A stretch of DNA of 24,000 nucleotides from Sulfolobales archaeon HS-7 (GTDB lineage Archaea > Thermoproteota > Thermoprotei_A > Sulfolobales > Sulfolobaceae). The stretch's first letter is position 1; each line of letters opens with the position of its first letter. Where the stretch lies: contig AP024596.1 of the NCBI GenBank assembly GCA_019704295.1, forward strand, positions 829,369-853,368, written 5' to 3'. A program made the translations under genes and the position numbers. The notes beneath the pieces were generated by a model. That model searched no databases and had not been told where the DNA came from. It was given only the letters and a program-made list of their open reading frames with translations. Shown here one piece after another: positions 740 through 23,339 of the stretch.

Positions 740-1196
740 AATAGCGTGTAATCCATAATTAACGCAAGAAACTAGATAAATTAAAATGTTATAAAATACA
801 TTCCCTAGAATTAAAATAGTTGTGTTATAGAGAGAAATAGTATAAAATTAGTTTATTCAAAGTACCCTAATGTAATAACATATTTTTAAGTATTAGAGCT
901 AAAACTAGGTTTTCAGTGTAATGGGTTTAACGTTTACAAGGAAATGACGGATATTTTGAGCTTAGTAAGTTAGTAAAAGCACTTAATCTCTCGCAATTCC
1001 CCGTAATATAATCCCGATTATCCGTGATAGGGAGAGTTATTCATATATAGAAGAATTTAGTTTTTAAAGTAAATAATATTTGTTATACATTACACACTAT
1101 TCTGACAATCAACAGCATAAAATAATTAAAACGAGTGTGTAAAGGGAGATTGGTATTATATTCACTGTGAAAGTTCCTCATATATAGTTTCTTAAT
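740..1196. repeat. Copy A of a diverged, ORF-free paralogous element of about 0.43 kb (partner at 21601-22010, same orientation)
   Basis: Hand alignment gives collinear blocks. Block 770-800 vs 21623-21653 matches 28/31. Block 907-936 vs 21764-21793 matches 24/30. Block 1061-1073 vs 21910-21922 matches 13/13. Inter-block spacings are 137/154 nt versus 141/146 nt. No ORF of 60 aa or more on either strand. Confidence 0.65.
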
Positions 1197-1881: not shown

Positions 1882-2331
1882 TTAATTGATTAATTTTCTC
1901 ACACAATAGAGGAGAACTGCTGCTAGTTGGGGAGCGCCAATATCACCTACAGCTATGTCCATGCTTATTTCCTCGCCGAAACTAGTATCCACCTTTGAGA
2001 ACTTTTCATCAAGTCCATGAAATACTAACATGGTCGGTATATTTTTAAAAAGTTCAGAATAATTTACTTTTTGTCCGCTACCTGGCGTGACTAAATACAC
2101 TTTTTCAGGTCTAATCAGCTCCACCGCGTCCTTAAGGTCTGGAAGTATGATAATTCCTTTTCCTAATTTATACGCCATTTTATTTACTTCAGGTATCCCT
2201 GCCTGTGCTGCCGTTCCTCCTACCTTTGTTGCAACCAAAATTCCATTATCGGTTAAAGAGTAGACTACTTTTGCAAATTCAATTAACCTCTGGACACTAA
2301 TCACATTATGAATAACCACATATATCTTCAT
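1882..2331 (-). CDS. Conserved archaeal alpha/beta protein with a SPOUT-methyltransferase-like C-terminal pattern; function unknown
   Basis: ORF track 1882..2361. The likely start is MKIYVVIHN at 2331. The C-terminal MLVFHGLDEKFSKV...ISMDIAVGDIGAPQLAAVLLY resembles the SpoU/TrmD-class knot region (lvfG.e..G......ip......lnv..A..i.LYe). It overlaps the 3' end of the upstream methyltransferase gene by 26 nt. Confidence 0.45.
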   Translation of the reverse strand: MKIYVVIHNVISVQRLIEFAKVVYSLTDNGILVATKVGGTAAQAGIPEVNKMAYKLGKGIIILPDLKDAVELIRPEKVYLVTPGSGQKVNYSELFKNIPTMLVFHGLDEKFSKVDTSFGEEISMDIAVGDIGAPQLAAVLLYCVRKLIN

Positions 2332-3271
2332 ATTTTCCTCTAATATAACGTGCAATCGCATTAGATAAGCTTACTGGAACAGACTCTCCTACCTGGTTAT
2401 ACTGTTCGTCTCTCGAACCATAAAAGACATGGAAGTCTGGGTACAACATTAATCTTGCCTGTTCTCTAACCGTCAGGAAACGATCCTCAAATGGATGAAT
2501 AAATCTAGATCCACCCATTACTGTTGGTGCTATCTCATTAGGATCTAAACGGCGGTATAAAGGTATCTTCTTTCCACTACCCTCATACATGGACATATAT
2601 TCATTAAATGAGAGATTAACTATTTTTCTTAGTTTTTCATCACTAATTGCTATTTTTTCATGGTTTGGTACGTCGTTGATTTCCATTAGATCCCTTATTG
2701 CCTCATAGACTGTTATTCTTTTTGTCATGATCTGTGGTTTTATTTCAATATTAGAAATGAAAACTCTCGTCCTTCGCGATGGATTACCATAATTTTCTGC
2801 CCTCAATATATTAAAAAAAACTTTTGGATATCCTGCGTCATCAAAAAGCCTAGAAAGTTCGTCTCTTAACTCACCATGTTCTACTAAAGACGGAACGTTT
2901 TCCATTACGAATATGCAAGGATTAATTTCCTTAAGAACTCTTATGTATTCTAATGTCAGTAGTCCTCTCTCATCCTCATATAACCGCGATAGTGGCTCTT
3001 TCTTCCTTTTTGGATTAGCCGCTGTAAAAGCTTCGCACGGCGGACTGCCTATTACTATTTTTGGGTGACTATTGATTAATTTTATTTGTTTCCAATTAAA
3101 ATAGGCTATATCCTCTTCTAATACTAATGTTGTGGGAAAGTTAGATGCATACGTTCTAGCCGCATCATGATTTTTTTCTAATGCAACAATTATTTCAAAC
3201 CAGTATGAGAATCCTCTACTAAATCCTCCAGCACCTGCGAAAAGATCAATTACTGCTGGCTTTTGTTTCAT
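2306..3271 (-). CDS. Cytosine-5 methyltransferase (Dcm/Dnmt fold), orphan: no adjacent nuclease gene
   Basis: Motif I VIDLFAGAGGFSRGF. Motif IV GSPPCEAFT, with the catalytic PC. Motif VI FVMENVPSL. Motif VIII RRTRVFI. Motif IX LTVREQARLMLYPDFHVF. Motif X QVGESVPVSLSNAIA. The ATG at 3271 is preferred over the TTG at 3277. Confidence 0.85.
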   Translation of the reverse strand: MKQKPAVIDLFAGAGGFSRGFSYWFEIIVALEKNHDAARTYASNFPTTLVLEEDIAYFNWKQIKLINSHPKIVIGSPPCEAFTAANPKRKKEPLSRLYEDERGLLTLEYIRVLKEINPCIFVMENVPSLVEHGELRDELSRLFDDAGYPKVFFNILRAENYGNPSRRTRVFISNIEIKPQIMTKRITVYEAIRDLMEINDVPNHEKIAISDEKLRKIVNLSFNEYMSMYEGSGKKIPLYRRLDPNEIAPTVMGGSRFIHPFEDRFLTVREQARLMLYPDFHVFYGSRDEQYNQVGESVPVSLSNAIARYIRGKYEDICGYS

Positions 3272-3773
3272 TAGCAATCTCTTCTTCTAGTTTTTCTATT
3301 CTTTCCCTTAATCTCTCCTTAACTTTTTCCGAGTCGTAATAGGACAGTGGTGAACCACACCTAGGACACTTAAACTGATTTTCAAACGCCTCATCAAACG
3401 TGTATCTTGCGTAATCGTTATTACACACGTAAAATGTATTGGAACTTTCGAATTCTAATCTCAATTTTAATTTTTCGAGTATTGCGCGCTTCCTATTTAG
3501 TATAATGTTATTAATTTGTTCTAAATTAGCCCTCCAAAAATATATATACCATCCGGTATCCTTATCTCTTGTGCGTCTAGAAATCACGAATCCCTGTTCT
3601 GCCAACATGTAAAGAACCTTTCTGACATCATTTATCTTTAGATTTAGCTCGTTGGCTATATCTTCATCTTTCATTTCTTCCCTCCTCTTAATCAAAAGAG
3701 ACAATACGTCAATAACATCATCGCCTAAAATTTCTTTCGCCATTTTTATTAATAATTCTTCTACACTACTCAT
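3246..3773 (-). CDS. tfe: Transcription factor E alpha (TFE, TFIIE-alpha homologue): winged helix plus zinc ribbon
   Basis: Winged-helix region DEDIANELNLKINDVRKVLYMLAEQGFVISRRTRDKDTGWYIYFWR. Zinc-ribbon-like YVCNNDYARYTFDEAFENQFKCPRCGSPL. Its ATG at 3773 overlaps the stop of the upstream gene. Confidence 0.9.
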   Translation of the reverse strand: MSSVEELLIKMAKEILGDDVIDVLSLLIKRREEMKDEDIANELNLKINDVRKVLYMLAEQGFVISRRTRDKDTGWYIYFWRANLEQINNIILNRKRAILEKLKLRLEFESSNTFYVCNNDYARYTFDEAFENQFKCPRCGSPLSYYDSEKVKERLRERIEKLEEEIANETKASSN

Positions 3774-8289: not shown

Positions 8290-9773
8290 TGTAGCTCAGC
8301 CTTACATATTCTCTCAATTTTTTTAGCTAACTTTGCTGAAGCGTAGATAGTGATCTGTTTACTGTCGTTGCTCTTACAAAACTCGGCTAAGGTCTTAAGT
8401 AGATCCCGTTTAACCTCGTACTCTAACGACTTAGAGTTTTCGAATTGCGATAGTGGGTATATCTCTGAAACATTTATCGGTATCAACCCGAAATATGGAT
8501 AGAATATTAATACCTCTGCCTCAGGAAACTTTTCCCTAATATTCCTTACAAATTCTGACGAAATAAACGGTTTTCTTATTTTTAAGCCATCTATTAATAT
8601 TATACTATTTTTTTCAACTTTATAATTTTTCATAAAAGTCTTATGCCTTGTTATCTCTGGACGCCAGAGGGAATTCCTTGTAATCAAAAATATTCCCTTT
8701 TCTCCTGTTCGACGGTCGTAATTTTCCAAATATTCTTTATATTTTTTTAATCTATTAAAGGAATCGTAAAGACTTGGATGTACAAGGGATTTCTCCTCTG
8801 CATATTCGAATAACCTACCCTCTCTAATTGCTATTTTTATCCTTTTTATTTCCTCAGATATTTTAATTAAATTGTGAATAGAGAGAAGCCTCGTTCTATC
8901 TTGATATTCCATCTCTTTTAATTCCTTGGGAAGATATCTAGAGCATACGTTACAACTACAAGGGAAATAGTCTAGTTGATCTAATTTGTAAACTCTCCCT
9001 TCTGTTATGTATCTGCCATTCCTTGCATATAAAATATATGAGGCTGAATCAAAGGTATCCACACCTAAGATTACCGCTATAGGAAATACATGTGGCAATC
9101 CTGCACCGAAGAGATGGAGGGCTTTTCCTCTACTTACGTTAGACTTTGCAGTATAAATCATCTCTACAAGTTTAACGTAATTATACTCCTTCATAAGTAC
9201 GGTTGGGCTTCCCAATCCTAACATCTTATACTTGTTCGCCGAATCAGCCATTTTCGCCGAGAAGCTTAACAATTCAAGATTATATCCACCTTGAATAGGA
9301 TGCAACCAAACAATTCTTTCATTATCTATTACACTTTCAACCTCTTTTCCTCTTTTTATTGTTTCTTCTACTGAATATTTAACTTTTTCAACCTTATTAG
9401 AATTACCAGTAGGAATATCCAGTATTACTCCAATGTCAGGAAGAATAAGATTCTCGTATTCTACTATTTCTTTATTAGTCACGTCCACGTTTCCGTATTC
9501 TAGTATTTGGTATGCGCCAGAATCAGTCATTATTATTTGGTCTGTATTAAAAAATGAATGAATAGTAGAACTTATTTGCATTTTTTTAAGGAAGTATGCA
9601 TTAGTTATGAAGTTATCAAATCCTAACGATTTTAGATCCTTAGGGGTTATCGTAGTATCTGAGGGATCAATAACAGGAAAAAACGCAGGGGTTTCTAGTT
9701 TTCCATGTCGCGTATGGAGTACGCCTATTCTCCCTGCGAGGTCTTCGTACTTTATTTCGAAGTCTCCGTTCAT
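8280..9773 (-). CDS. tgtA: Archaeosine tRNA-guanine transglycosylase (arcTGT), catalytic plus C1/C2 domains, no PUA domain
   Basis: IIMTDSGAYQ, LHLFGAGLPHVFPIAVILGVDTFDSASY, and the zinc site CSCNVCSRY...SIHNL. At 497 aa it is too short to include a C-terminal PUA domain. Confidence 0.9.
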   Translation of the reverse strand: MNGDFEIKYEDLAGRIGVLHTRHGKLETPAFFPVIDPSDTTITPKDLKSLGFDNFITNAYFLKKMQISSTIHSFFNTDQIIMTDSGAYQILEYGNVDVTNKEIVEYENLILPDIGVILDIPTGNSNKVEKVKYSVEETIKRGKEVESVIDNERIVWLHPIQGGYNLELLSFSAKMADSANKYKMLGLGSPTVLMKEYNYVKLVEMIYTAKSNVSRGKALHLFGAGLPHVFPIAVILGVDTFDSASYILYARNGRYITEGRVYKLDQLDYFPCSCNVCSRYLPKELKEMEYQDRTRLLSIHNLIKISEEIKRIKIAIREGRLFEYAEEKSLVHPSLYDSFNRLKKYKEYLENYDRRTGEKGIFLITRNSLWRPEITRHKTFMKNYKVEKNSIILIDGLKIRKPFISSEFVRNIREKFPEAEVLIFYPYFGLIPINVSEIYPLSQFENSKSLEYEVKRDLLKTLAEFCKSNDSKQITIYASAKLAKKIERICKAELHYI

Positions 9774-10213
9774 TGCTTCTGCTCTTTTTTCTTCTTTATA
9801 TATTCATTGTAGATGTCAGTTACTTTCTGGGCTAAAGGACCAGTGCCCTCCACACCAATATTTTCCGTTACTGTAATTTTCTCCATAATGGTAACTACTC
9901 CGGTTTCCTCGTAAACCTTTACATCACCTGGTCTTAATTTTAACGTTTTTTCCACAAGTTCCGCAAATTCACTGGGTACGAATAGAGGAGTTGTCTTCAT
10001 GAGTATTTCTGAAATGCTATTACCGTTAATAACTACCTTGTAATAGGAGTTGTTATTATTGTCTTTCGCATTAGTTAAACTTAATGTAAGTGAAGGTAAG
10101 TCGTAACCCGTGAGTTGTCCTATATATTCCTTTCCACTAATTAGCCTGACCACGACTTGTTTATCAAGCATAGATGCGATGTCATTTACTATTCTCCTAT
10201 TCTGGGAACTCAT
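9770..10213 (-). CDS. Sm-like (Lsm) protein with a C-terminal extension, SmAP3-type
   Basis: Sm1-like LDKQVVVRLISGKEYIGQLTGYDLPSLTLSLTNA. Sm2-like KVVINGNSISEIL. An extra C-terminal domain of about 70 aa follows. Its stop overlaps the arcTGT start as ATGA. Confidence 0.72.
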   Translation of the reverse strand: MSSQNRRIVNDIASMLDKQVVVRLISGKEYIGQLTGYDLPSLTLSLTNAKDNNNNSYYKVVINGNSISEILMKTTPLFVPSEFAELVEKTLKLRPGDVKVYEETGVVTIMEKITVTENIGVEGTGPLAQKVTDIYNEYIKKKKEQKQ

Positions 10214-10339
10214 TTAAACACCAAATAGAAATAAAGTTGGACGGATAAATAATGGTGATCATCTACGGTTAAGAATACCGAATTATCTCTCTCTGGGAAA
10301 GTAACTGACATTAAAGAAGGTACATTACCTGGAGTTTAC

Positions 10340-10636
10340 GTGATCGAAGTTGAGGGAGACGGTATTGCGTTTTCAGTAGATATGGTCAAGGAATTAGTAT
10401 CACTCACAAAGGGTCAGGAAGTTATAGTATCCCTTACAAAAAGTAAACCAGAATTTACGGAAAGGGATTTTTGTGCAAGAGGATATGTATTCCATGAGAG
10501 GAACGTAAACGGAAGGTTCGTTACACTAATATCATTGTTTGGTCTATTGGTTAAGGTGAACTCTTCAGAAGGTCTTTTACAAAAGGGAGTATTCGCTATG
10601 TTAGATCACGTCTATCTTTGTATAAAGGTGAAGTGA
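10340..10636 (+). CDS. rpo8: RNA polymerase subunit Rpo8 (RpoG, Rpb8 homologue); the true N-terminus is probably upstream of the listed GTG
   Basis: FVTLISLFGLLVKVNSSEG resembles the Rpb8 C-terminal SFGGLLMRL signature. The protein is small and beta-rich, and its position between PAN and thermosome beta matches my memory of Sulfolobus genomes. The frame stays open upstream to the TGA at 10256-10258. Confidence 0.6.
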   Translation: MIEVEGDGIAFSVDMVKELVSLTKGQEVIVSLTKSKPEFTERDFCARGYVFHERNVNGRFVTLISLFGLLVKVNSSEGLLQKGVFAMLDHVYLCIKVK

Positions 10637-10638
10637 AA

Positions 10639-11700
10639 ATGATGGTAAGGAAAATTAGCGAAATAGAACCTATAAAGTGGAATAATGGCGAGGTGGTTTG
10701 GCTTAATGTAGCTAGACTGCCATGGGAAGAGGAATATAAACATTCGTCGAATTATGAAGACATAGCTAGAGCTATAGAAGTAATGGAAATAAGGGGTGCC
10801 CCTGCGATTGGTGTCGCTGCAGCATATGGAATAGCAGTTGCAGTGTATAATTATAACGGAACGACCCAAGAGCTTTTAGAAGTAGCGAATAAAGCGTCTG
10901 AACGACTTAAGAGAACTAGACCGACAGCGGTAAACTTATTCTGGGCAGTAGAGAGAATGATGAACAAGGGAAACTATCTCTATCGGGATAACGTTAATCC
11001 CGAATCTTTCAAATCCTCTCTGCTTGAGGAGGCACATAAGATAAAAGAAGAAGATATACAAAATAATAAAAGAATGGGAGAAATAGGTAGCTCAGTTATA
11101 AAAGACGGAGACGTAATTCTAACACATTGTAATACTGGTTCCCTTGCAACAGCTGGATTCGGCACAGCTTTAGGAGTTATAAGAAGTGCATGGTTACAAG
11201 GTAAAGACATTCAGGTAATAGCTACGGAAACTAGGCCGTTATTGCAAGGAGCTAGGCTGACAATTTGGGAATTATGGAAGGATGGAATACCTTCAAAACT
11301 CATTACTGATAACATGGCCGGCTTTCTAATGCAAAAGGGGCTAATATCTAAAGTAATACTGGGCGCTGATAGAATATTAAGGAATGGACACGTAATAAAT
11401 AAAATAGGCACTTATTCGTTAGCAGTACTCGCTGAGCACCACGGAATAGAATTTTATGTTGCTGCACCAACTTCAACTATAGACATACAAACATCATTAA
11501 ATGATGTTATAATAGAAAGCAGAAAAAGTGAAGAAGTAAAGAACGTAATGGGCAAACTTACGATAACAGTTGAAGAAGCGGATGCTATGAACTTTGCATT
11601 CGATATAACTCCTCCAGAACTTGTAACTGGAATAATAACAGAGAAGGGAATTGCGAAATATCCTTTTAAAGAGTTGGAAAAACTCAAAAAAACTGATTAG
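10639..11700 (+). CDS. mtnA: Methylthioribose-1-phosphate isomerase family protein (MtnA / aIF-2B subunit-1-like)
   Basis: RGAPAIGVAAAYG, TRPTAVNLFWA, HCNTGSLATAGFGTALG, ETRPLLQGARLTIWEL, GADRILRNGHVINKIGTY, FYVAAPTSTID. The ATG at 10639 is preceded by GGTGA (10627-10631). Confidence 0.85.
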   Translation: MMVRKISEIEPIKWNNGEVVWLNVARLPWEEEYKHSSNYEDIARAIEVMEIRGAPAIGVAAAYGIAVAVYNYNGTTQELLEVANKASERLKRTRPTAVNLFWAVERMMNKGNYLYRDNVNPESFKSSLLEEAHKIKEEDIQNNKRMGEIGSSVIKDGDVILTHCNTGSLATAGFGTALGVIRSAWLQGKDIQVIATETRPLLQGARLTIWELWKDGIPSKLITDNMAGFLMQKGLISKVILGADRILRNGHVINKIGTYSLAVLAEHHGIEFYVAAPTSTIDIQTSLNDVIIESRKSEEVKNVMGKLTITVEEADAMNFAFDITPPELVTGIITEKGIAKYPFKELEKLKKTD

Positions 11701-13352
11701 TCTTCTTTTTCAGACTCCCCTTCTTTTTTCTCCGGACCTTTTCCTGCTCCAGTAGATTTCTTGCTTGCAGCTACCAGATCATCTATTCTTAATATGAGAG
11801 ATGCCGCCTCGGTAGACGCCTTTAGCGCATTAATCTTTACTACTGAGGGTTCAACTACGCCTAATTTCATCATTTCTTCTGGCTGTCCCGTAAATACATT
11901 TATACCATACCACTGTCCATTTTCTCCCTCATGTAAACTTCTTAGTTTCATTAACATATCTACTGGATCAAGACCTGCATTTTCTATAAGAGTCATAGGA
12001 ATTCCTTCAACGCCTGCTGCGAATGCCTGTATTGCCAACTGTTCCTTTCCGCCAACTTGTTGTGCATACCTTCTTAACCTTTTAGCTATTTCTAGTTCTA
12101 TAGCGCCCCCTCCAGCAACTATTCTACCATCCCTTATTACATCAGCAACTGTTCCTAATGCATCTTTTATGGCTCTTTCTACCTCATCAACAACCCTCTC
12201 TAATCCCCCTCTTATTAAAATACTTACTGATCTAGGATTCTTCGCCCCTTCGACGAACACCATCTTATCTTCTCCTACTTTCCTTTCTTCAACTAATTCA
12301 GCATGACCTAGGTCTTGTTCGGTTAACTCATCCAAGTTACTTACCACTCTACCACCAGTAGCTCTTGCTAGTTTCTCAAGATCACTCTTCTTGGCTCTTC
12401 TCACAGCAAGGATACCTTTCTTTGCTAGGAAGTGTTGAGCAACATCGTCAATTCCTTTCTGGCATATAACTACGTTAGCTCCAGTAGAAGCTATCTTGTC
12501 GACCATTTCCCTTAATATGTTCTCTTCCTCCTCTAGGAATTTGTTCATTTGCGTTGGGTCATTTATTCTTATTTCAGCATCAATTTCAGGTTTTTCTACC
12601 TCTAATGCGGCGTCAAGGAGTGCGATCTTTGCATGTTCAACTCTTTTTGGCATTCCAGGATGGACTACTTCTTTATCCACGATTATTCCATACACTAGTT
12701 GAGTGTCGTTTATACTTCCTCCGTGCTTTTTAACTAACTGAACGTTATCAAGATCTACATACCATTTGTCTCCCCTTTTCTCTGCTATTTGGGTTACTGC
12801 TTTCATAATAATTTCTGCAATGTAATCTCTTGCCCCTGCAATAGCCTTACTACTTAAGGATGTCCTGGCTACTTGTTTTATTATTTCAGTATCATTTATC
12901 GTAATATGCTTTGATAATTCATCAACGGCTTTTGTTGCCTCATCTAGAGCCTTCTTATACCCAGACACTATCACAGTGGGATGAATTTCCTTATCAAGCA
13001 GTTCTTCCGCTTTTTTAACAAGCTCTCCCGCTAGTACTACTGCGGTTTTTGTTCCGTCTCCAGTTTCCTCATCCTGACCTTTCGCAATTTGAACTAGTAA
13101 CTTAGCAGCAGGGTGTTGTAAATCCATTTTATCAAGTATAGTAGCTCCGTCGTTTGTAATCGTTATATCACCCAGACTATCTACTAACATTTTGTCCATA
13201 CCTCTTGGGCCATAAGTTGTTCTTAGCGCTTCCTGAACAGCTTTCACAGCTGCTATATTATTTCTTAAGGCTTCTTTCCCGTAACTTCTAGACGAACCCT
13301 CTTTAAGTATGATTACGGGGATTCCTTCTGGAGTTGTAGCAAGTGTTGCCAT
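11697..13352 (-). CDS. thsB: Thermosome (group II chaperonin) subunit, beta-type
   Basis: [54 protein letters not shown], and a charged Gly/Lys/Glu-rich C-terminal tail. 551 aa. Confidence 0.95.
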
Positions 13353-13389
13353 GAGAATTCACCTACTACTTTTCCCTAAGTATCACTTC

Positions 13390-13396
13390 TATAAAA
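13390..13396 (-). promoter_or_regulatory. TATA box of the thermosome gene
   Basis: The minus strand reads CTTTTATAGA, centred about 41 nt upstream of the ATG at 13352. This is consistent with a short 5' UTR. Confidence 0.45.
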
Positions 13397-13658
13397 GATT
13401 ATCGATCCCATACTTTGAATTCATGATAGGAGTTATTGGATACTTAATTCATACTCAAAGCCAATACGTCATAGTGAAAGCGCTACGAGACCGAAGAAAA
13501 TCTATTAAACCTATGTAAGGTAAATTTTCTTGGAAAAATCTAGAATTACGCTAAATATATATTATCTTATATGGGCGCGACTGGGATATAAATCCAAGTC
13601 TGCTGAAGTTTAGTCTCTGCAATAGAGTTAAAAGCGTAAAGTACAGGTGTTTTAAATA

Positions 13659-14045
13659 ATGAGGAGAGAAGTATACTTAATACTCGCAATCCTTGTAATA
13701 TTGCTTACTTTAGGTGGAGTTTATCTAGCATCTTCGTATAGGACAAATATAACTTATTCACAGGTTGGTAGTTCAAGTGTAGATGGTAAGTACGTGTTAT
13801 ATGTTAAAATTATAATGAACTACGGTCCTTTTGGAGGAAGTTCTCCACTTGATGATGCAGAAATCTGGATATACCATAATGGAATGTTTTACTCACAAGG
13901 TTACACCAATGGTAGCGGCGTAGTGCAATTCACCCTTCCACCAGGTACCTATACGGTAAGAATATTACCCTTAAGGATGGAGGAAAACATATCTCTTAAT
14001 GGTGATTGCGTTTTGACAGTTAATTACGCCTATTTACATTCATAG
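13659..14045 (+). CDS. Small membrane-anchored or secreted protein with a carboxypeptidase-regulatory-like beta-sandwich motif
   Basis: N-terminal hydrophobic anchor VYLILAILVILLTLGGVYLA. TNGSGVVQFTLPPGTYTVRI is typical of CarboxypepD_reg-like domains. Confidence 0.55.
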   Translation: MRREVYLILAILVILLTLGGVYLASSYRTNITYSQVGSSSVDGKYVLYVKIIMNYGPFGGSSPLDDAEIWIYHNGMFYSQGYTNGSGVVQFTLPPGTYTVRILPLRMEENISLNGDCVLTVNYAYLHS

Positions 14046-14448
14046 CATAATGTTTAGTAAAAATAATATATTTAGTTAAAGTATTACCTCGCTTTTATCT
14101 TTTCATGCATAGGAGGAGCGAAAGACCCGTAAGAGGTGCGATTGATAGTCCGGTATTATTTAGACATAAGTTTTCGGGAGGTATATCGATAATAGTCAGC
14201 CACGGGATAAGTGTCACCTAGATGCTTAAGTGAGGGTTTATGCGGTGGACCTACGCTCTAATCAGGAACTCCATATTCATCATACTATATGTTCACATCC
14301 GAGCTCGAGGTGCAAACCTTTAGTACTTCTGGAGCCCTCTTGGCAAGGCGGAGAAATAGAAAGCCCTGTCCGCGAGAGCAAGGCAGTTTGCATACTATTA
14401 ATGGTGAAAGATTCCGTGGGGATTAAGATCGATAGTCTAGTACATTTA

Positions 14449-15858
14449 AAACTAGTTTACCAGTCTTGTTTCGCCAAAAAATCTCATGATTGTAAGAGAT
14501 TATTAGAGTAATTTGTGTATAAAAATATAGGATTAAGTTAACTTAAGAGGTATAACAATATGATATGTTTAGTTAAAATCTGCTATATTTTACAAGTTAA
14601 TACTAGCAGACGCAAGAAGTTCTGAATTTATTTAACGAGGTCAAAACGAGGTACATATTCCATCCCCTAGCTTGAAAACGTCTAGAGGAGGTTAACGAAC
14701 TGGTCAAACGCTAGGGGCTTCTCTCTCGGTGCCTTGAAGTTAAAAGAGAGGAAGAGGTACAAGTTCCAGGAAGTGTCGAGAAGTGGGTAGATCAGGTAAA
14801 GCTTGTTGCACAACCTCCTAATAAGTTCTATTCTAGCCTTCCTCGTCTTGAGCCCTTCCTCTATTTACCACCTCGACCTGTAGGTCTCGGCCAACTCGTA
14901 AGGATCTTTGTCAACGTTTGAGACGAAAACGAAGTGCATTGGTTTCCCCTTGTGTTTCACGTAAATCACGTCGTAATAGTAGAGTCCCTTGTGATCTAGC
15001 CTTCTATAAGCAACGTAAGTTCTGTCGTTAACTGCGTGGTACCTCACGGTAAGGGGCTGGGCAAAGAGTTCCTTGACTCCCTTCAAGTTAGTTTTCCCTC
15101 TGATCACGGTTTTAGCGGGTAACTCCTTGAGGATCTCGAGGTTGAGGAATCCAGCGTCAGCAACAACGTAACTCAAGTTAACGTGCTGTAAAGCCCTATT
15201 GACGAACTCTTGAAGAAACTCGGAGGGCTTTTGATCCCCCCGGAACTGCGAATTGGGTAACCACGTTACATCTCACGGGAGACAAGAGATCTGCGGATCT
15301 AACCTTGGCCTTTCCCGAGAAGAGTTTGTCCCCCACTCTCTCCGCCTCCTTCTCTCCCACCCTCAAGAAGGTCTCGTCGAATCCCAGCACGATCTTCTCA
15401 TTAGTGAAAATTGTACACAGCTCCCAGAACTCGAAGGTTTTACCCAGAAGTTTACCTAGCTTTTTCCCTTGTCTTACAAGGGAAATGCAATCCTTTCCTC
15501 TATTTTCCGAGAGGAGGGATTTGCTCCTCTTGATAACGTCCCGGGGATTAGAGGAAATCTTCTTAAACGCTTCCTCTACTATTAGCGCGGGACTTATCCC
15601 TTGGCTTTGGTTTCCGCATATCAAAATCTGGGAAGTCCCTCGCTTAAACTTTAACGTCCTCATTTCTACCCACTTGATAATACACAAGGTATTACTATAC
15701 GTGTAAAAACTAGGTTACGTACCTTTTACAGAGATAAAAGTCGATATTTTCCTCACTTTAGCTGAAATTTAGCTAATTTCGACTCTTGAGCGAGATTCTC
15801 CCATGTTTTAAAAATTGTCTCATATTTAGTAAAATTGGCGAAATAAGACTGCTAGTTT
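14449..15858 (-). mobile_element. IS4-family insertion sequence, about 1.41 kb, non-functional copy
   Basis: Terminal inverted repeats: 14461-14477 CAGTCTTGTTTCGCCAA matches the reverse complement of 15835-15851 (CAGTCTTATTTCGCCAA) at 16/17. Outside these, AAACTAG (14449-14455) matches the reverse complement of 15852-15858. The GC-richer interior carries a DDE transposase pseudogene. No target-site duplication could be identified. Confidence 0.75.
14682..15663 (-). pseudogene. DDE transposase (IS4 family), disrupted by one frameshift and one in-frame stop
   Basis: D1 LGFDETF, D2 YVVADAGF, then ETYRSRW-stop-IEEGLKTRK, which is the Y-(2)-R-(3)-E-(6)-K signature with TAA (14865-14867) at the variable position. 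The upstream and downstream halves differ by one frame at a C6 run (15236-15241). Deleting one C joins ...FAVPG to DQKPSEFLQEFVNRALQHVNLSYVVADAGF. Confidence 0.8.
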
Positions 15859-16029
15859 ACAGACAATGCGTTAATCACAGTTACTAACGTACTAAGCTTC
15901 ACAAGAACGTATCGGTTAACGAGATGGTCTATGAGATAGACCTCATTCTTCATCGGACAGCATGTCCTAAATCGGGGTAGAAAGAATTCCTAAGTTTATT
16001 CAGAACTTCGTCAGTAGGTTGGTGGCAGT

Positions 16030-16593
16030 TTACGCCATTTTGAGGGTGATTACGTATATTATTGTCAGCGTTACTACGCCAGCAACTAACATATATAGAC
16101 CTGTTACTATTCCCTCTTTAACCTCTCGCTCAAATACCGTCCCCATTACGAAAAGTAAAGAAAAAGTTACACATAAGCTTAAGAATAGGCCCATATAGCC
16201 CCCTATTATACTATAAATTAATAAGATAACTACCCCTATGAGAGGAGACGCAGCATGAGCGAGAGAAGACAGGACGACTAGCAGCTTTAAGGCTCTGTCA
16301 TAGTAACTTCCTTTCATAGATTTAGCCATTTGGCCTTCTAATTTCTTTAGTTCCGCTTCAGCATCTCTAATCTCCACTATGAACGCATTACCCCCAGAGG
16401 ATACGCTTATTCCAATTAGCCCGCTGAGGCCTAAAATTAAGGTAGAAAAGGAAGATTCTTTACTTATAAAACTGGCAAGAACTACGCTTATGGCGGTTAT
16501 ACTCCCATCAAACGAACCTAAGATAAAGTATTTTTTTAGGTATCCGTAAATATTCATTTCCCTAAACATTTCCTTTATTCTTGTAAAATCCAC
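16030..16593 (-). CDS. VIT1/CCC1-family membrane protein (putative Fe/Mn transporter)
   Basis: ILGSFDGSITAISVV, a central amphipathic segment (EIRDAEAELKKLEGQMAK), and several C-terminal hydrophobic helices. GTG start. Confidence 0.75.
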   Translation of the reverse strand: MDFTRIKEMFREMNIYGYLKKYFILGSFDGSITAISVVLASFISKESSFSTLILGLSGLIGISVSSGGNAFIVEIRDAEAELKKLEGQMAKSMKGSYYDRALKLLVVLSSLAHAASPLIGVVILLIYSIIGGYMGLFLSLCVTFSLLFVMGTVFEREVKEGIVTGLYMLVAGVVTLTIIYVITLKMA

Positions 16594-16646
16594 TCAAGAC
16601 CACCAATTATAGCACAATATTTAATTTAAGCGATATTACTCTACCT

Positions 16647-17258
16647 ATGCTTTCAGAAAAAATAGCTATCTACATAGAAAAAATTACACCTAAACTAGAA
16701 GAAAGATTTGAAAATAGGGAAAAGGTACTACAGTTATCACGTGAAATTATACGTCTAAGTGGGGAAGCAATATCTTTTTCCCATAGAGGAAAGAGCGATT
16801 CTGCTGTAGAAAAGTTCCATCTTGCTATAGATAAGGTTAGACAGGTGAAGGATTTAATACATGAATATCCCGAACTTCTCACTGGTGATGCAGGTACTGC
16901 ATTCCAAGAGCTTACTGAAGCCTATATAGTTCTATCTTACCAGACAGATCGCTCTATCGAATTGCCGGAGGACATGAACATACCGATTATCTTTTACGTA
17001 TTAGGAGTTGCGGACGCCGTAGGAGAATTAAGGAGGATTTGTTTAGAACAACTAAGGAAAGGTAATTACACCTATGCTCAGGAGATGTATAAGGAAATGG
17101 AAAATTTATACGAGATCTTATGGCGGCTAGAGTATCCTAAGGCCATGGTTCCATCTCTTAGACAGAAAATAGACAATTTGAGGCGCATACTAGAGGAAAC
17201 CAGTCATGATCTTTTCTTGGCCTCAATAACGACATATTCTAAGCACACTGATAAGTAA
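16647..17258 (+). CDS. Translin-family protein
   Basis: All-helical 203 aa. YVLGVADAVGELRRICLEQLRKGNY matches the translin/TRAX G.aD..GEL.R motif. Confidence 0.72.
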   Translation: MLSEKIAIYIEKITPKLEERFENREKVLQLSREIIRLSGEAISFSHRGKSDSAVEKFHLAIDKVRQVKDLIHEYPELLTGDAGTAFQELTEAYIVLSYQTDRSIELPEDMNIPIIFYVLGVADAVGELRRICLEQLRKGNYTYAQEMYKEMENLYEILWRLEYPKAMVPSLRQKIDNLRRILEETSHDLFLASITTYSKHTDK

Positions 17259-17259
17259 G

Positions 17260-18195
17260 CTATGTAGAATATGTAGTTACTCCTTCGTTACTTATTTCAG
17301 AGTCTATTAATTTAGCTCCACTTATTTTAAGCAAGTTTTCGGCTATTTCCGATTTTAGGCAGACTACAGCTCCTCCACCGCCGCCTCCACTAATCTTACA
17401 CCCATCAATACTTAATTTCTTAGCCAGCCCTATTATATAGTCGACTCTTTCATCTGTTATACCAAGCGCATTAAGAAGTCCGTGGTTAATATACATAAGA
17501 CGGCCTATTTCTTCTTTTCTTCCCTCTACTAACGCAGTTTTTGCTTTATTTGTTATTGTTTCGATTAGACCAAAAATTCCATTAACTAATTCCGGATTGC
17601 TCTGCTTTGTGATAGATACGCGCTTAAGGATATCCCTTGTAGTTTCGCTTCTGATAATGTAGCCTACTGTAAATTTCAAATTCGTACTCAGCCTCTGTTC
17701 TTCGTTTTCGGTAAAGAAAATGATTCCTCCTAAAGCCTCTGTAAAAGTATCCATCCTACTTCCAATTTTTTGTACACTCTTCTCAATTTCAAATGATATT
17801 TTTGCTATTTCCTCTCTGCTTAACTTGTATCCTAGAAACGTAGAGTAGGCAGCAGTTGTTCCCACAACAACAGCAGCGCTGGTCCCGAGTCCCACTGAAG
17901 GTTCTACCTGAGTATCTATCTCAATTTCTACCGGTTTTTTTCCAAAATAGTCTATAACATGGATAATATAATTAAATAATTCTTTAGCTACAGGATTTAT
18001 TATTATAGAAGAATCAAGATCAATCGTAACTCCCTTAATTGTGAGGCTGGGAGAGGATACTATTATCCTGTTATTTCCTTGCTTAATCTTTACATAAAGA
18101 TATTCATTTATTGTAGCTGCAATTGCCGGCTTGTTATAGACAATTGCATGTTCACCAAAGAGTGTAACCTTAAGAGGAACTTTTGCTATAATCAT
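17260..18195 (-). CDS. mvk: Mevalonate kinase (GHMP kinase)
   Basis: PLKVTLFGEHAIVYNKPAIAATI, GHMP motif VGLGTSAAVVVGTTAAY, and C-terminal KISGGGGGGAVVCL. A TATA-like CTTTATAAAAA (minus strand, about 18209-18219) lies about 20 nt upstream of the ATG. Confidence 0.9.
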   Translation of the reverse strand: MIIAKVPLKVTLFGEHAIVYNKPAIAATINEYLYVKIKQGNNRIIVSSPSLTIKGVTIDLDSSIIINPVAKELFNYIIHVIDYFGKKPVEIEIDTQVEPSVGLGTSAAVVVGTTAAYSTFLGYKLSREEIAKISFEIEKSVQKIGSRMDTFTEALGGIIFFTENEEQRLSTNLKFTVGYIIRSETTRDILKRVSITKQSNPELVNGIFGLIETITNKAKTALVEGRKEEIGRLMYINHGLLNALGITDERVDYIIGLAKKLSIDGCKISGGGGGGAVVCLKSEIAENLLKISGAKLIDSEISNEGVTTYST

Positions 18196-19183: not shown

Positions 19184-19989
19184 ATGTATGTACAACCTCG
19201 TATGAACTAAGAATAATAATGGCTAGGTGTTATAGTAAGAAGCAGGTACGTGTGTAAGGATTTTTTATATATTAACGCATCTCTATTCATATTGGTTTGA
19301 ATATTCCTGATGTTTTCATTATATGAAGTGATTATGGCTACTTTTCTATAACTCGACAAAATATCGTTTTTACCTACAGTCGTCATTTAGGAATTTCTTA
19401 CGAGGTCCTTTTAAACTTTTACTCTAAGATGATGTTTTGAAGGTTAGCAATTTTTATCACCACCCAGAAAGTGGATGAAGATCTTAATTGTAAACTATTA
19501 TCTAAGTTTAAAGTAAGGTATACTATGTTTAACGAAATAATTTCAATATATCTAAAAAGAATCAAACTAGAGAACGCCTTTGAATACATGGTCTAAAAAT
19601 TAACTTATAATCAGATTTTCCAGCGTATATCACTTTTCATACGACCCTCTGTTCATCATCCATCTTATATGTCTAATATCTCCTTAGCCTACAAACTTAA
19701 AACTATCTCGCTTACTACACTTTTAGAGTTCGACTTTTATCGCAACTACCAGTCACTTTTCGTGATTATTAGTTACTTAACCACATCACTCTTTTTACCT
19801 TCCAGTCCCTAAGGTAGCGAGACTACCTCCCAGCCATGAGACGTAACAGTGTCTTACGCATAATAAATGTTATTTACTTTATTAACTTAATTTTTAGGAA
19901 AAAATAAGTATCACGAACATAACTCGAAGAATAATACTTAAGGGGAATTATGTGTGGATCGTACTATGATCACGATAACTAAGCCTACG

Positions 19990-20760
19990 TAATGACCCAT
20001 GAGGCGCTACATGCTTCGCCTCTAACACGACTATAGGAACATGAGTCTCCAACGGTACCTAGATCAACGTTATGTTCCTTGACGTTCTTGCTCTTGGCAA
20101 ACTTGCACCTCTTAAGACTAAACCATTGTAGAGACTGTTATTCTCATCCCTAGTGTAGCATGTTTTCCCGTGGAAACGTTGAGACACACATCTAGAGGCT
20201 TGTACCTGATCTCAGGGAAATTGATCCAAGAAGGAAACCTCATGAGGTACTTGCGTCTCTCCATGAGAGGAGAAGGGATCAACTCTTCTCCCATTTCCCG
20301 CGAAATTACGCCCTTAGGGGAGGTAGCTGGGGCAAGAAGTAGGGAAAACGCTGTTCTGAGGGAGGTGCTTCGCTTAGATCTCCTCAAGATCCTCATGGTT
20401 TGCAAGGTTAAGATAGTTCTAGCCAACGTTTCCGACTTTAAATCTCCCATCTGTAACGTGATCACGCTCGTGGACAGGGGGTTTGCGGAGAGAGGCAAGG
20501 TGATCAGAGTCAAGAGGGGCTTGGGAGTACTGGGAGGAGGTGCTCTCCAAAGCTTTCCTCATAACATGAGAGCCCACTAGAGGAGCATGAGGGGATTGAA
20601 CGCCTTTGCCAACCTCCTGGGCCTAGCTTACAATATTTGGCGGTTTAGGCCCATTAGTAAACCTTAAAATCTCCACTTAAAATCCCACTAGAGAAGCTCG
20701 TTTCCAACCTTGATTCTCGAAAGTTTCTAGATTAGTTGCGAGTAGTCTTGATAAACTGAC
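19990..20760 (+). mobile_element. Remnant of a second, different IS element (GC-richer block, internally deleted)
   Basis: GC content rises sharply relative to the flanks. The block contains a transposase-like frame (next feature). No convincing terminal repeats were found, so the boundaries are approximate. Confidence 0.45.
20170..20667 (+). pseudogene. Transposase fragment with an in-frame TAG
   Basis: A single frame reads ...ICNVITLVDRGFAERGKV (DDE second-Asp-like), then ...HNMRAH-stop(20578-20580)-RSMRGLNAFANLLGLAYNIWRFRPISKP-stop. It is too short between the D-like motif and the C-terminus for an intact DDE domain. Confidence 0.5.
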
Positions 20761-21101
20761 CTTTATTATTCGCTTTAATAATTAAGCGAATTAAATTCTA
20801 GACTTACGCGTTTCATAACTTTTTACTTTATTTAGTTATTCACTTTGGTTACACATTGGACATAGTAGCATGTAAGTAATAGTATAGAGAAAACCTAGCA
20901 GTTTACTCTATATAATAATAAACCCCTTTTACCGGAAAAATAAACGTCTTGTTTGATACGAAACACAACGTTTTCCCCAATTTTTAAATGAAGTCATTTT
21001 ACTTCAATTCTTTTTCATAATCGACTCTATAGTCCTATTGAAAAACTTAGAAGAGAGGCGTTAATGAGAAAAAATAAAATCCTCATATAGAATTTAATAA
21101 T

Positions 21102-21201
21102 GCGGAGGTGCCCGAGCCTGGTCAAAGGGGGCGGACTTAAGACCTCTAAGTAAGAGATCCGCTGGCGTAGGCCTGCATGGGTTCAAATCCCACCCTCCGC
21201 A
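21102..21201 (+). tRNA. tRNA-Leu (anticodon UAA) with a 15-nt intron at the canonical 37/38 position
   Basis: Acceptor stem GCGGAGG/CCTCCGC plus discriminator A. Anticodon stem GCGGA/TCCGC with loop CT-TAA-G[intron 21142-21156 ACCTCTAAGTAAGAG]A. A long variable arm is present, and the T arm is GGG-TTCAAAT-CCC. About 60% GC against an AT-rich background. An A/T-rich promoter-like stretch lies about 25 nt upstream. Confidence 0.92.
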
Positions 21202-21600
21202 CTCTAAAAGCAGCAATATTCTGTTACACGGCGGTTTAAATAGGGCCTTTCTAGAATATATTTAAATATCTATCAAAAAGTTGCATCTGGGTTAGTAAGT
21301 TCAGAGGACAAAAGTTAATTATTAAATTTTTGTTAGGGTAGTAAAAGACACCTCCTTTTAGCCACAGGTAACAGGATTTATATGCATTAAAATTAGTTAT
21401 GCAATCATGCGGAAATGCGTGACATGACCGACTTAACAAGAAGCAGAAGATAGCAATTTACGCGGTAAGTGACATAACGGAAGAGGTAAAAAAATTGCTA
21501 GAGAAGGAAAAAAGGCCACTCATGAATCTTATATAGGTTTATTAGTTGAGGAGAGTAATACTCCTCAGCTAGGGAAACATGGTCGCTCACATATCAGTGT

Positions 21601-22010
21601 CTAATGCGTAATTAATGCGATCAACTAGATAAACTAAAAAGTTATAAAATACGTCAGTGTAGAATTCAATTTATTCAACTATAAGAGTAAAGATAATATA
21701 AAATCACTTTATTAGGTATAATCAAAAGTAACAACATATTTTTCGCAATAAAGGATAGGAACAAGGTTTTCAGCGTCATTAATTGAACGTTTAATGAGGA
21801 TACCGCCAGACTTTGTGAGCTTAGGAAGTTAACAAAGGAGTTTTATCTCCTGAAATCCTCATATTGTCCTAATTGAGCATTGTGAGGTGTATTATTGTAT
21901 ATATTAAAATTTTTAAAGTAAACAGCATTTATTGCGCATTGGACACTGTCACGTGACAAATTAGTAAGTAATATAGAAATCCGGATTAGAATATCGATAT
22001 ATAGTTGATT
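21601..22010. repeat. Copy B of the diverged paralogous non-coding element of about 0.43 kb (partner at 740-1196)
   Basis: See copy A. The blocks are collinear, in the same orientation, and no ORF is present. Confidence 0.65.
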
Positions 22011-22136
22011 ACCTATAAGCATATGGCTTCATGGGATTTTGGATCTAGCAAGGGGGAAAGAGTTCACATTTTATTAGTATACTTAGCGAAAACTCTATTT
22101 TCGACATTGCTAGACTATTTCCCTAAAACATGTTAT

Positions 22137-23339
22137 TTATTTCGATGCCTTCGTTGAAACAATTTTAATTATCGAACCGTCATTAACCTCATAGTCAGCA
22201 CCGATTTTAATTTTTCTCTTTACATCTATAGCATAAAGGAAACCTTCACCAAGATCTGTGTGAATTGCATAAGCGACATCTATAGCTTTACTTCCACGCG
22301 GCATAATTAGTGCGTCAGGTAACACATTACCGTTTCTATCCGTATATTTTTTTTCATCTTCTACAGGATATACTACAATATTATTTCCGGCATTAAAGGT
22401 GGCTATATTTAACGCCTCTTGCACACCTGTCGAACCGTATACATCGAGAACGCTTTGCTTTATGTAATTTAATGCATTAAGTTGTTGTTCGCTTAGTTGT
22501 CCATTTATATCAAATGACGACTCTCCAGGAATGTATCGTATCAGTCCTGCCTTATCTGCTTTCCTTAAGGCTAACTCTGCCTGAGCGCTCGCCGGGATGA
22601 CGTATTGGTATTTAGTTTTAAGCCTTTCTATTATTTTTTTAGCCTCTTCCTTATCCGCCTTATTAGCCACAATAACTATAGGTTTAGAGACATTCCTTAA
22701 TGTTAATGCAAATCTTTGAATTTTATCGTTGCTCCACGAAGTTAATTTCTCATTCATTAAGTCAGCCTTTCTAAGGGCTTCGATAATATTTTTTCTATTT
22801 ATTGAAAGACCGGATAATTTAGACAATAAAGAATCTACTACATCTTTTCCCGTTAAGTCTACGGTTTTGGCGAATTTATCCCAATCTTTTTTCACAATAT
22901 CTGTAAACCAAGTATCGAACTCTCCTTGAATTGATACTATCTCAACTTCTGGGTCATAACTACCTGCTGGAACTGGTTTTCCCTCTTCATCAGTAGAACC
23001 GCTTGCGTCGATTACATGTAATAAGACATCAGCTCTCCTAAGTTCATCGAGAAATCTATTTCCTAGACCTTTACCCTCATGTGCTCCTGGAATAAGCCCA
23101 GCCACATCAACCAGGGTTACGGGGATGAATCTGTACTTATCTATACAAATTGAATTCCTTGGTCTGCATTTAACCCCGAGCTCGTTATGTGCACATAATA
23201 CCTTTACGTAACCTACCCCCTTGTTCGGTTCTATTGTGACGAAAGGTCTATTGGCAATGGGAACATCTATTAGTGTCGCTGCAGAAAAAAACGTGCTTTT
23301 ACCAACATTTGTCTTCCCTATAAGTCCTATGGTGATCAT
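22137..23339 (-). CDS. OBG/YchF-related P-loop GTPase with a C-terminal TGS-like domain
   Basis: G1 GLIGKTNVGKSTFF, G3 DVAGLIPGAHEGKGLGN, G4 IVANKADK. The C-terminus ends in DGSIIKIVS (beta-grasp/TGS-like). Confidence 0.8.
   Translation of the reverse strand: MITIGLIGKTNVGKSTFFSAATLIDVPIANRPFVTIEPNKGVGYVKVLCAHNELGVKCRPRNSICIDKYRFIPVTLVDVAGLIPGAHEGKGLGNRFLDELRRADVLLHVIDASGSTDEEGKPVPAGSYDPEVEIVSIQGEFDTWFTDIVKKDWDKFAKTVDLTGKDVVDSLLSKLSGLSINRKNIIEALRKADLMNEKLTSWSNDKIQRFALTLRNVSKPIVIVANKADKEEAKKIIERLKTKYQYVIPASAQAELALRKADKAGLIRYIPGESSFDINGQLSEQQLNALNYIKQSVLDVYGSTGVQEALNIATFNAGNNIVVYPVEDEKKYTDRNGNVLPDALIMPRGSKAIDVAYAIHTDLGEGFLYAIDVKRKIKIGADYEVNDGSIIKIVSTKASK

Follow-up and report, generated by a model that had tools for sequence, protein, structure and literature searches.

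A probable family of non-autonomous, MITE-like elements with short and long forms in Sulfolobales archaeon HS-7

The genome of Sulfolobales archaeon HS-7 contains two similar stretches of DNA, here called copies A and B, which in our view are probably old and diverged copies of a small, non-autonomous, MITE-like transposon that comes in a short form of 0.36 kb and a long form of 1.0 kb. The family would be uncatalogued and lineage-specific, and it has so far been seen only in HS-7. The repeats themselves, their boundaries, their inverted ends, the weighting of conservation towards these ends, and a long form with multiple genomic copies were observed directly; it is the coincidence of sharp limits with terminal inverted repeats (TIRs), together with the end-weighted conservation and the presence of the 1.0-kb relative at several loci, that favors a non-autonomous element. 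A preliminary description of this DNA had offered either a family of non-coding RNA (ncRNA) genes or a non-autonomous element as an explanation; the second of these is now favored, while the first has gained no support. In what follows, the window is the entire 24,000-nt stretch of DNA that was analyzed.

Copies A and B Share a Homologous Unit of About 0.36 kb

The two short copies are positioned as follows.

740-1104, plus strand: copy A, short form, approximately 362-365 nt (nhmmer with a three-copy profile, E = 4.6e-90)
21593-21953, plus strand: copy B, short form, approximately 360 nt (nhmmer with the same profile, E = 3.5e-99)

The three matching blocks that had originally drawn attention to this pair are correct (28/31 at 770-800 versus 21623-21653, 24/30 at 907-936 versus 21764-21793, and 13/13 at 1061-1073 versus 21910-21922), and the identity of about 66% measured end to end (742-1103 versus 21594-21953) lies within the range of 65-75% that had been estimated. 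A blastn comparison aligns 743-990 with 21596-21849 (70% over 254 nt, E = 1.5e-20), and a gapped local alignment extends from 743 to 1108 and from 21596 to 21959, with 249 of 374 positions being identical. That this similarity exceeds chance was borne out by a shuffle control: the alignment score of 216 compares with a mean of 31.7 (standard deviation 4.8, maximum 58) in 300 dinucleotide shuffles, corresponding to a z value of 38.

The unit is smaller than had been thought. Homology between the two copies stops at about position 1104 in A and at about 21953-21959 in B (nhmmer bounds 742-1103 and 21594-21953), so that the homologous unit spans only about 0.36 kb instead of 0.43 kb. The runs of T that had been noted behind both copies (at about 1198 and 22034) fall approximately 100 nt outside of it. 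Neither copy contains an open reading frame (ORF) of at least 60 amino acids, as had already been stated; the longest one comprises 59 amino acids (21843-22022, minus strand). A three-base periodicity was looked for in the mismatches among all three copies of the family and none was found.

A Third, Longer Copy Carries a GC-Rich Interior

Although only two copies had been recognized in the window, a third and longer one, copy C, is present on the minus strand.

19842-20865, minus strand: copy C, long form, approximately 1.02 kb (local alignment, blastn and nhmmer)
20589-20865, minus strand: 5' arm of C, approximately 277 nt (nhmmer E = 2.8e-67)
19950-20588, minus strand: interior of the long form, approximately 0.64 kb (45-58% GC; window 36.6%)
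19842-19949, minus strand: 3' arm of C, approximately 108 nt (nhmmer E = 9.3e-21)

Copy C has the opposite orientation to A and B; it faces B, with a tRNA gene in between. Its 5' arm aligns with the first 250-270 nt or so of A and B (B 21598-21867 versus C 20862-20576, local alignment score 151), and its 3' arm corresponds to the last 107 nt or so of the short form (A 995-1101 versus C 19949-19845); both arms are therefore kept in the order found in A and B, around an extra interior of 0.64 kb. Pairwise identities amount to 66% for A and B, 61% for A and C, and 65% for B and C. The arms of the long form are AT-rich; they carry the inverted ends as well as TATA-like motifs pointing into the element. 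Apart from the interior, the window has just two GC-rich islands, namely the tRNA gene and a decayed insertion sequence (IS).

The latter, a DDE-type element at about 14200-15700 with a GC content of up to 54%, contains a fragmentary ORF matching DDE_Tnp_1 (14865-15176, minus strand) and is unrelated to the A/B/C family. A kinship of the C interior with this decayed IS (14.2-15.7 kb) was likewise considered and rejected by comparison.

Inverted Termini and Conserved Ends

The preliminary description had reported an absence of terminal inverted repeats. Blastn and the scoring of arm pairs revealed, on the contrary, that both A and B end in imperfect ones, and the most conserved blocks of the unit are found next to them.

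740-758, plus strand: left TIR of A, AATAGCGTGTAATCCATAA (blastn; arm-to-arm score 14)
1083-1101, plus strand: right TIR of A, reverse complement AATAGTGTGTAATGTATAA (17/19 identical to the left arm)
21587-21618, plus strand: left TIR of B, with the core CAGTGTCTAATGCGTAATTAATGC (blastn; arm-to-arm score 21)
21925-21956, plus strand: right TIR of B (26/32 identical to the left arm, 81% over 32 nt)
770-800, plus strand: left-end block of A, enclosing the TATA-like GTTATAAAATAC; the best-conserved part of the family
1061-1098, plus strand: right-end block of A, TTTTTAAAGTAAA...CACACT, overlapping the right TIR

The TIRs are 19-32 bp long, imperfect, and share the core CAGTGTCYAATGYGTAAT; that of B can also be given as CAGTGTCYAATGCGYAATWAATGC, and the terminal sequence of the family, as it would mark a partner IS, is CAGTGTCYAATGYG. 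Their significance was assessed against 3000 random pairs of 60-mers with the same spacing. The score of A is equalled or exceeded by 0.1% of these pairs (p ~0.001) and that of B by 0.03% (p ~3e-4), while the inverted repeat of C is weak in the same test (p ~0.08). When up to three mismatches are allowed, the pattern of the core repeat has no matches in the window other than the four ends of B and C, against an expectation of 0.08.

If the termini are viewed as the two strands of a helix, 88% of its cells are paired over the three copies, a value that drops to 21-39% in controls whose partner columns were displaced by one to three positions; covariation in this terminal helix does not rise above that of shuffles (112/500). 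The mismatches in the stem favor G-U pairs on one strand in A and on the other strand in B, a preference that points to a symmetry at the level of the DNA. No consistent flanking direct repeat that could represent a target-site duplication was recognized at A, B or C; since the copies are old, such a repeat, if short, may have been lost to decay. A perfect 10-bp palindrome, GTCACGTGAC, is present at 21948-21957, the right TIR of B ends inside it, and its equivalent in copy C reads GTTACGTCTC.

Three-way identity peaks just inside both ends of the unit, at 13-17 of 20 columns, and falls to 4-10 of 20 in the center. Such end-weighted conservation is expected if the ends carry what matters, as they do in transposable elements. 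The TATA-like sequence GTTATAAAATAC was confirmed at 788-799 and at 21641-21652, where its 12 nt are identical in A and B, and the alignment of all three copies upholds the earlier view that no other part of the family is conserved as well as the block containing it; in C, the motif is altered to GTTATGAAACGC. Judged from its sequence and its position just inside the left end, this block would most simply be a portion of the cis-acting left end, and it may also serve as an inward-facing candidate promoter of the element.

The short copies are non-coding and well below the approximate size limit of 0.6 kb that applies to MITEs, their TIRs lie at the exact limits of the unit, and three arm-bearing copies lie in the window. 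In the mechanism that we envision, a transposase made elsewhere in the genome would bind to the ends and move the unit, the conserved blocks just inside these ends would participate in this movement, and the short form would either have arisen from the long form by an internal deletion or be a backbone that was later given the interior. A search of the window for a partner IS or a transposase gene with matching ends found none, and the decayed IS does not possess such ends. Two further points need to be weighed against the proposal that A and B belong to a transposon family. Only two short copies are known, and their nearly equal lengths (362 versus 360 nt) at an identity of 66% could reflect selection instead of decay. 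Furthermore, the TIR of C is weak although this copy is one of the long-form group, which seems to be the younger one.

The Interior of the Long Form and the Direction of Change

The interior of copy C is bounded by AATCCCCT (20597-20590) and AATTCCCCT (19949-19941), which form a near-direct repeat, and in A and B both halves of this repeat are adjacent to each other. The short form may have been the original one, with C representing a short element into which a separate 0.64-kb mobile or foreign segment was inserted at AATYCCCY before the composite spread further. This insertion scenario differs from our main reading only in the direction of change, and we consider it unlikely, despite the flanking near-direct repeat, an interior that is far richer in GC than the arms, and the greater likeness of the long-form copies to one another (70-100% at the amino acid level) than of A, B and the arms of C (61-66%). 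The interior lacks inverted ends of its own, an observation that also led us to reject the idea of an element nested within the long form; in addition, both halves of the repeat already stand side by side in A and B, so that it need not be a target duplication, and a deletion between short direct repeats would produce the very same picture.

The interior is not confined to copy C. Six HS-7 loci have annotated ORFs (59-136 amino acids) that match it, and it is consequently present at six or more loci. A stop-free stretch on the plus strand of the C interior is 100% identical to HS7_08350 and HS7_08690, which are identical to each other, and 70-83% identical to HS7_13990 and HS7_17590; two more, HS7_10770 and HS7_13870, came to light in a profile search of 1.84 billion cluster representatives. 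Homologues of these ORFs from outside HS-7 were found neither in a protein library of 5.8 billion sequences nor among the cluster representatives, the lone non-HS-7 match of the profile search being a spurious one from a plant. HS7_13990 maps to 20323-20637 and hence reaches approximately 40 nt past the junction of interior and arm at 20597, which means that arm and interior occur together at another locus as well. The identical ORFs HS7_08350 and HS7_08690 are situated about 34 genes apart, and this particular pair could stem from a segmental duplication instead of transposition.

The reading frames of these ORFs differ from copy to copy: HS7_13870 corresponds to 20178-20315 in one frame and to 20323-20433 in another, and HS7_17590 exhibits frame shifts at both of its ends. 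No match to Pfam or NCBIfam was obtained for the interior ORFs, and an AlphaFold model built from five sequences reached a mean pLDDT of 35, so that a real, folded protein is unsupported. In view of the frame changes, the missing family matches and the low model confidence, the six HS-7 annotations as "hypothetical protein" are probably repeat-derived mis-annotations and not genes.

Does the Family Encode an RNA?

A and B might alternatively be genes of an unannotated ncRNA of about 300 nt, transcribed from a BRE/TATA-like promoter of their own (GTTATAAAATAC) and kept similar by selection on the RNA. We regard this as rather improbable. The identity of the 12-nt TATA-like motif in A and B within the best-conserved part of the unit, the presence of several internal blocks common to all three copies, and the nearly equal lengths of A and B despite a divergence of 34% all speak in favor of such genes; yet the TATA-like motif is changed in C and the center of the unit is its least conserved part. 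A search of A, B and C with Rfam 15 returned no match at the gathering threshold or even at E <= 1, the only Rfam families in their vicinity being the C/D-box sRNA sR20 and a tRNA.

Folding calculations also speak against a structured transcript. The minimum free energy of A is unremarkable on the plus strand (z = -0.45), and the low value of B (z = -5.2) is owed to the terminal stem formed by the inverted repeats, whose 5' arm is located upstream of the proposed TATA box and consequently outside of any transcript starting from there. Covariation, which had been put forward as a check on the ncRNA reading, lends it no support: for the 393 columns of the three-copy alignment, RNAalifold arrives at -28 kcal/mol, to which covariation contributes only -1.2 kcal/mol, and the terminal helix is the only one kept in all copies. 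The mismatches in this stem, which favor G-U pairs on different strands in the two short copies, likewise speak against a conserved RNA, and scans of other Sulfolobales genomes with sequence patterns revealed no further copy. The ncRNA genes with promoters that RNA-seq has uncovered in Sulfolobus resemble A and B in being intergenic, free of ORFs and equipped with a TATA-like motif; in contrast to these, A and B have neither a conserved RNA structure nor an Rfam family, and their inverted termini lie outside the putative transcript.

An RNA function can also be envisioned for the long form, which might be a new kind of mobile unit with a non-coding product, and not a protein, as its cargo. Its interior may, for instance, yield an RNA that serves the mobility of the element or the regulation of the host, with A and B being cargo-less or domesticated relatives that are kept for a promoter or RNA function, a scenario to which we assign a low probability. 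A structured RNA in the interior was looked for and rejected; its fold scores are inconspicuous (z = -0.24 and -0.34), and sliding windows gave no consistent signal.

Genomic Setting of the Copies

Copy A lies, as had been described, in a 790-nt gap, which extends from the start of the aIF5B gene (position 495, minus strand) to the point where a gene for a zinc-finger-like protein of 155 amino acids stops (position 1286). The aIF5B gene is preceded by a Shine-Dalgarno sequence, GGTGA. When the N-terminus of aIF5B was compared with protein sequences, only short partial proteins were recovered, and the one contig that was compared has a different upstream gene. Between the region upstream of aIF5B and the left end of A, a short GC-rich hairpin (GAGCTTG...CAAGCT, 661-700) is present that is followed by a T-rich stretch. 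On the same side of the window, the gene for a C-5 cytosine DNA methylase (323 amino acids) overlaps that of a DUF2122 RecB-family nuclease (159 amino acids; 1882-3277, minus strand), and these two genes may constitute a restriction-modification pair.

Copy B has a tRNA gene on one side and, on the other, the stop of a gene for a YchF-type GTPase (position 22137).

21102-21201, plus strand: tRNA gene with an intron, 100 nt (Rfam 39.4 bits; missed by ARAGORN)

By reading of its sequence, this gene is a putative tRNA-Leu gene with the anticodon UAA. It is flanked by inverted copies of the family, with C at a distance of 236 nt and B at about 390 nt. The sRNA gene for sR20 (RF01140, 49.6 bits) is found at 19609-19663 on the minus strand, 180 nt from the right end of C. 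In HS-7, the order following YchF is B, the tRNA gene, C, sR20 and a gene whose product has an anticodon-binding domain like that of HisRS (19200-22137). The closest relatives that were compared are 69% identical in the amino acid sequence of YchF and differ in gene order; in two of them, other members of the Sulfolobaceae, the YchF gene is directly followed by, and overlaps with, a convergent NTP-transferase gene. This adjacency places B and C at a break in gene order.

The crowding of three copies within 21 kb, the mutually inverted arrangement of B and C on either side of the tRNA gene across an interval of about 735 nt, and the gene order that is broken here relative to other genera might suggest that the copies are immobile, as leftovers of local segmental duplications of an intergenic or regulatory segment, or as sites at which the DNA around the tRNA gene inverts or recombines. 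Such an origin seems quite improbable to us: the flanks of A, B and C have no similarity beyond the inverted ends, the loci with the interior are spread through the genome (locus tags 08350 to 17590), and internal inverted termini are not expected from a plain duplication. Least probable of all is that the copies are remains of a decayed family of protein-coding genes, since the annotated ORFs of 59-136 amino acids at six loci that could speak for it shift frame between copies, match no protein family, lack homologues from other genomes in the search of 1.84 billion cluster representatives and yield a model with a pLDDT of 35, and A and B have neither an ORF of at least 60 amino acids nor a three-base periodicity.

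Comparison with Known Elements

Among known elements, MITEs of the Sulfolobales come closest to the family of HS-7. The MITEs SM1-SM4/SM3A (Redder et al. 2001) are summarized in PMC3718332, as is the 320-bp element SMN1, whose mobilization relies on the transposase of ISC1733 (Berkner and Lipps 2007; PMC3718332). As far as the account given in that overview extends, the HS-7 unit is likewise short, ORF-free, TIR-ended and intergenic, and the 0.36-kb short form is close in size to SMN1. The architecture would accordingly be that of the SM/SMN1 elements, a likeness that concerns the descriptions in this overview and not the sequences. The HS-7 family differs from these elements in having no known partner IS and no visible target-site duplication, in its few and very diverged copies (61-66% identity), and in the existence of a 1.0-kb long form whose interior has no consistent ORF.

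Non-autonomous elements derived from ISs, as well as MITEs of Bacteria and Archaea, have been described more broadly (PMC10969869, PMC11602168). With these, the HS-7 family has in common that the ends are conserved and the center is variable, that short and long forms share their ends, and that it is restricted to one lineage. It can be distinguished from deletion derivatives of ISs through the long form, which contains no recognizable transposase gene, so that a derivation from an autonomous element is apparent for neither form.

Searches for relatives of the family outside the window covered several collections. The pattern of the left block had five chance matches in a genome contig collection, none of them from Sulfolobales; three patterns run against a viral collection found nothing relevant; and in metagenomes, the matches to peptide patterns of the interior and to a DNA pattern of the right block were confined to the pattern itself. 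Blastn of A, B and C against plasmids and phages gave no match.

The termini of IS630/Tc1-mariner elements start with CAGTG, and these elements duplicate a TA target. Copy B starts with CAGTGTC and finishes with GACACTG; membership in this group is nevertheless unsupported, as these termini are flanked by AT and TC in B and not by TA in A and C either, and no IS630-type transposase was found to be linked to the element.

Implications for the Biology of HS-7

The family, most likely an ordinary kind of element, has no bearing on any long-standing open question. Its least ordinary aspect is that the long form contains a GC-rich, frame-inconsistent interior for which the libraries that were searched offer no homologue from outside HS-7. 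If our interpretation is correct, an uncatalogued, lineage-specific family of non-autonomous elements would be added to the genome of an unclassified and little-studied member of the Sulfolobales. It would explain both the unusually long gap upstream of aIF5B and the cluster of repeats at the break in gene order beside the tRNA gene, and it would flag six small "hypothetical protein" annotations of HS-7 as probable artefacts derived from a repeat.
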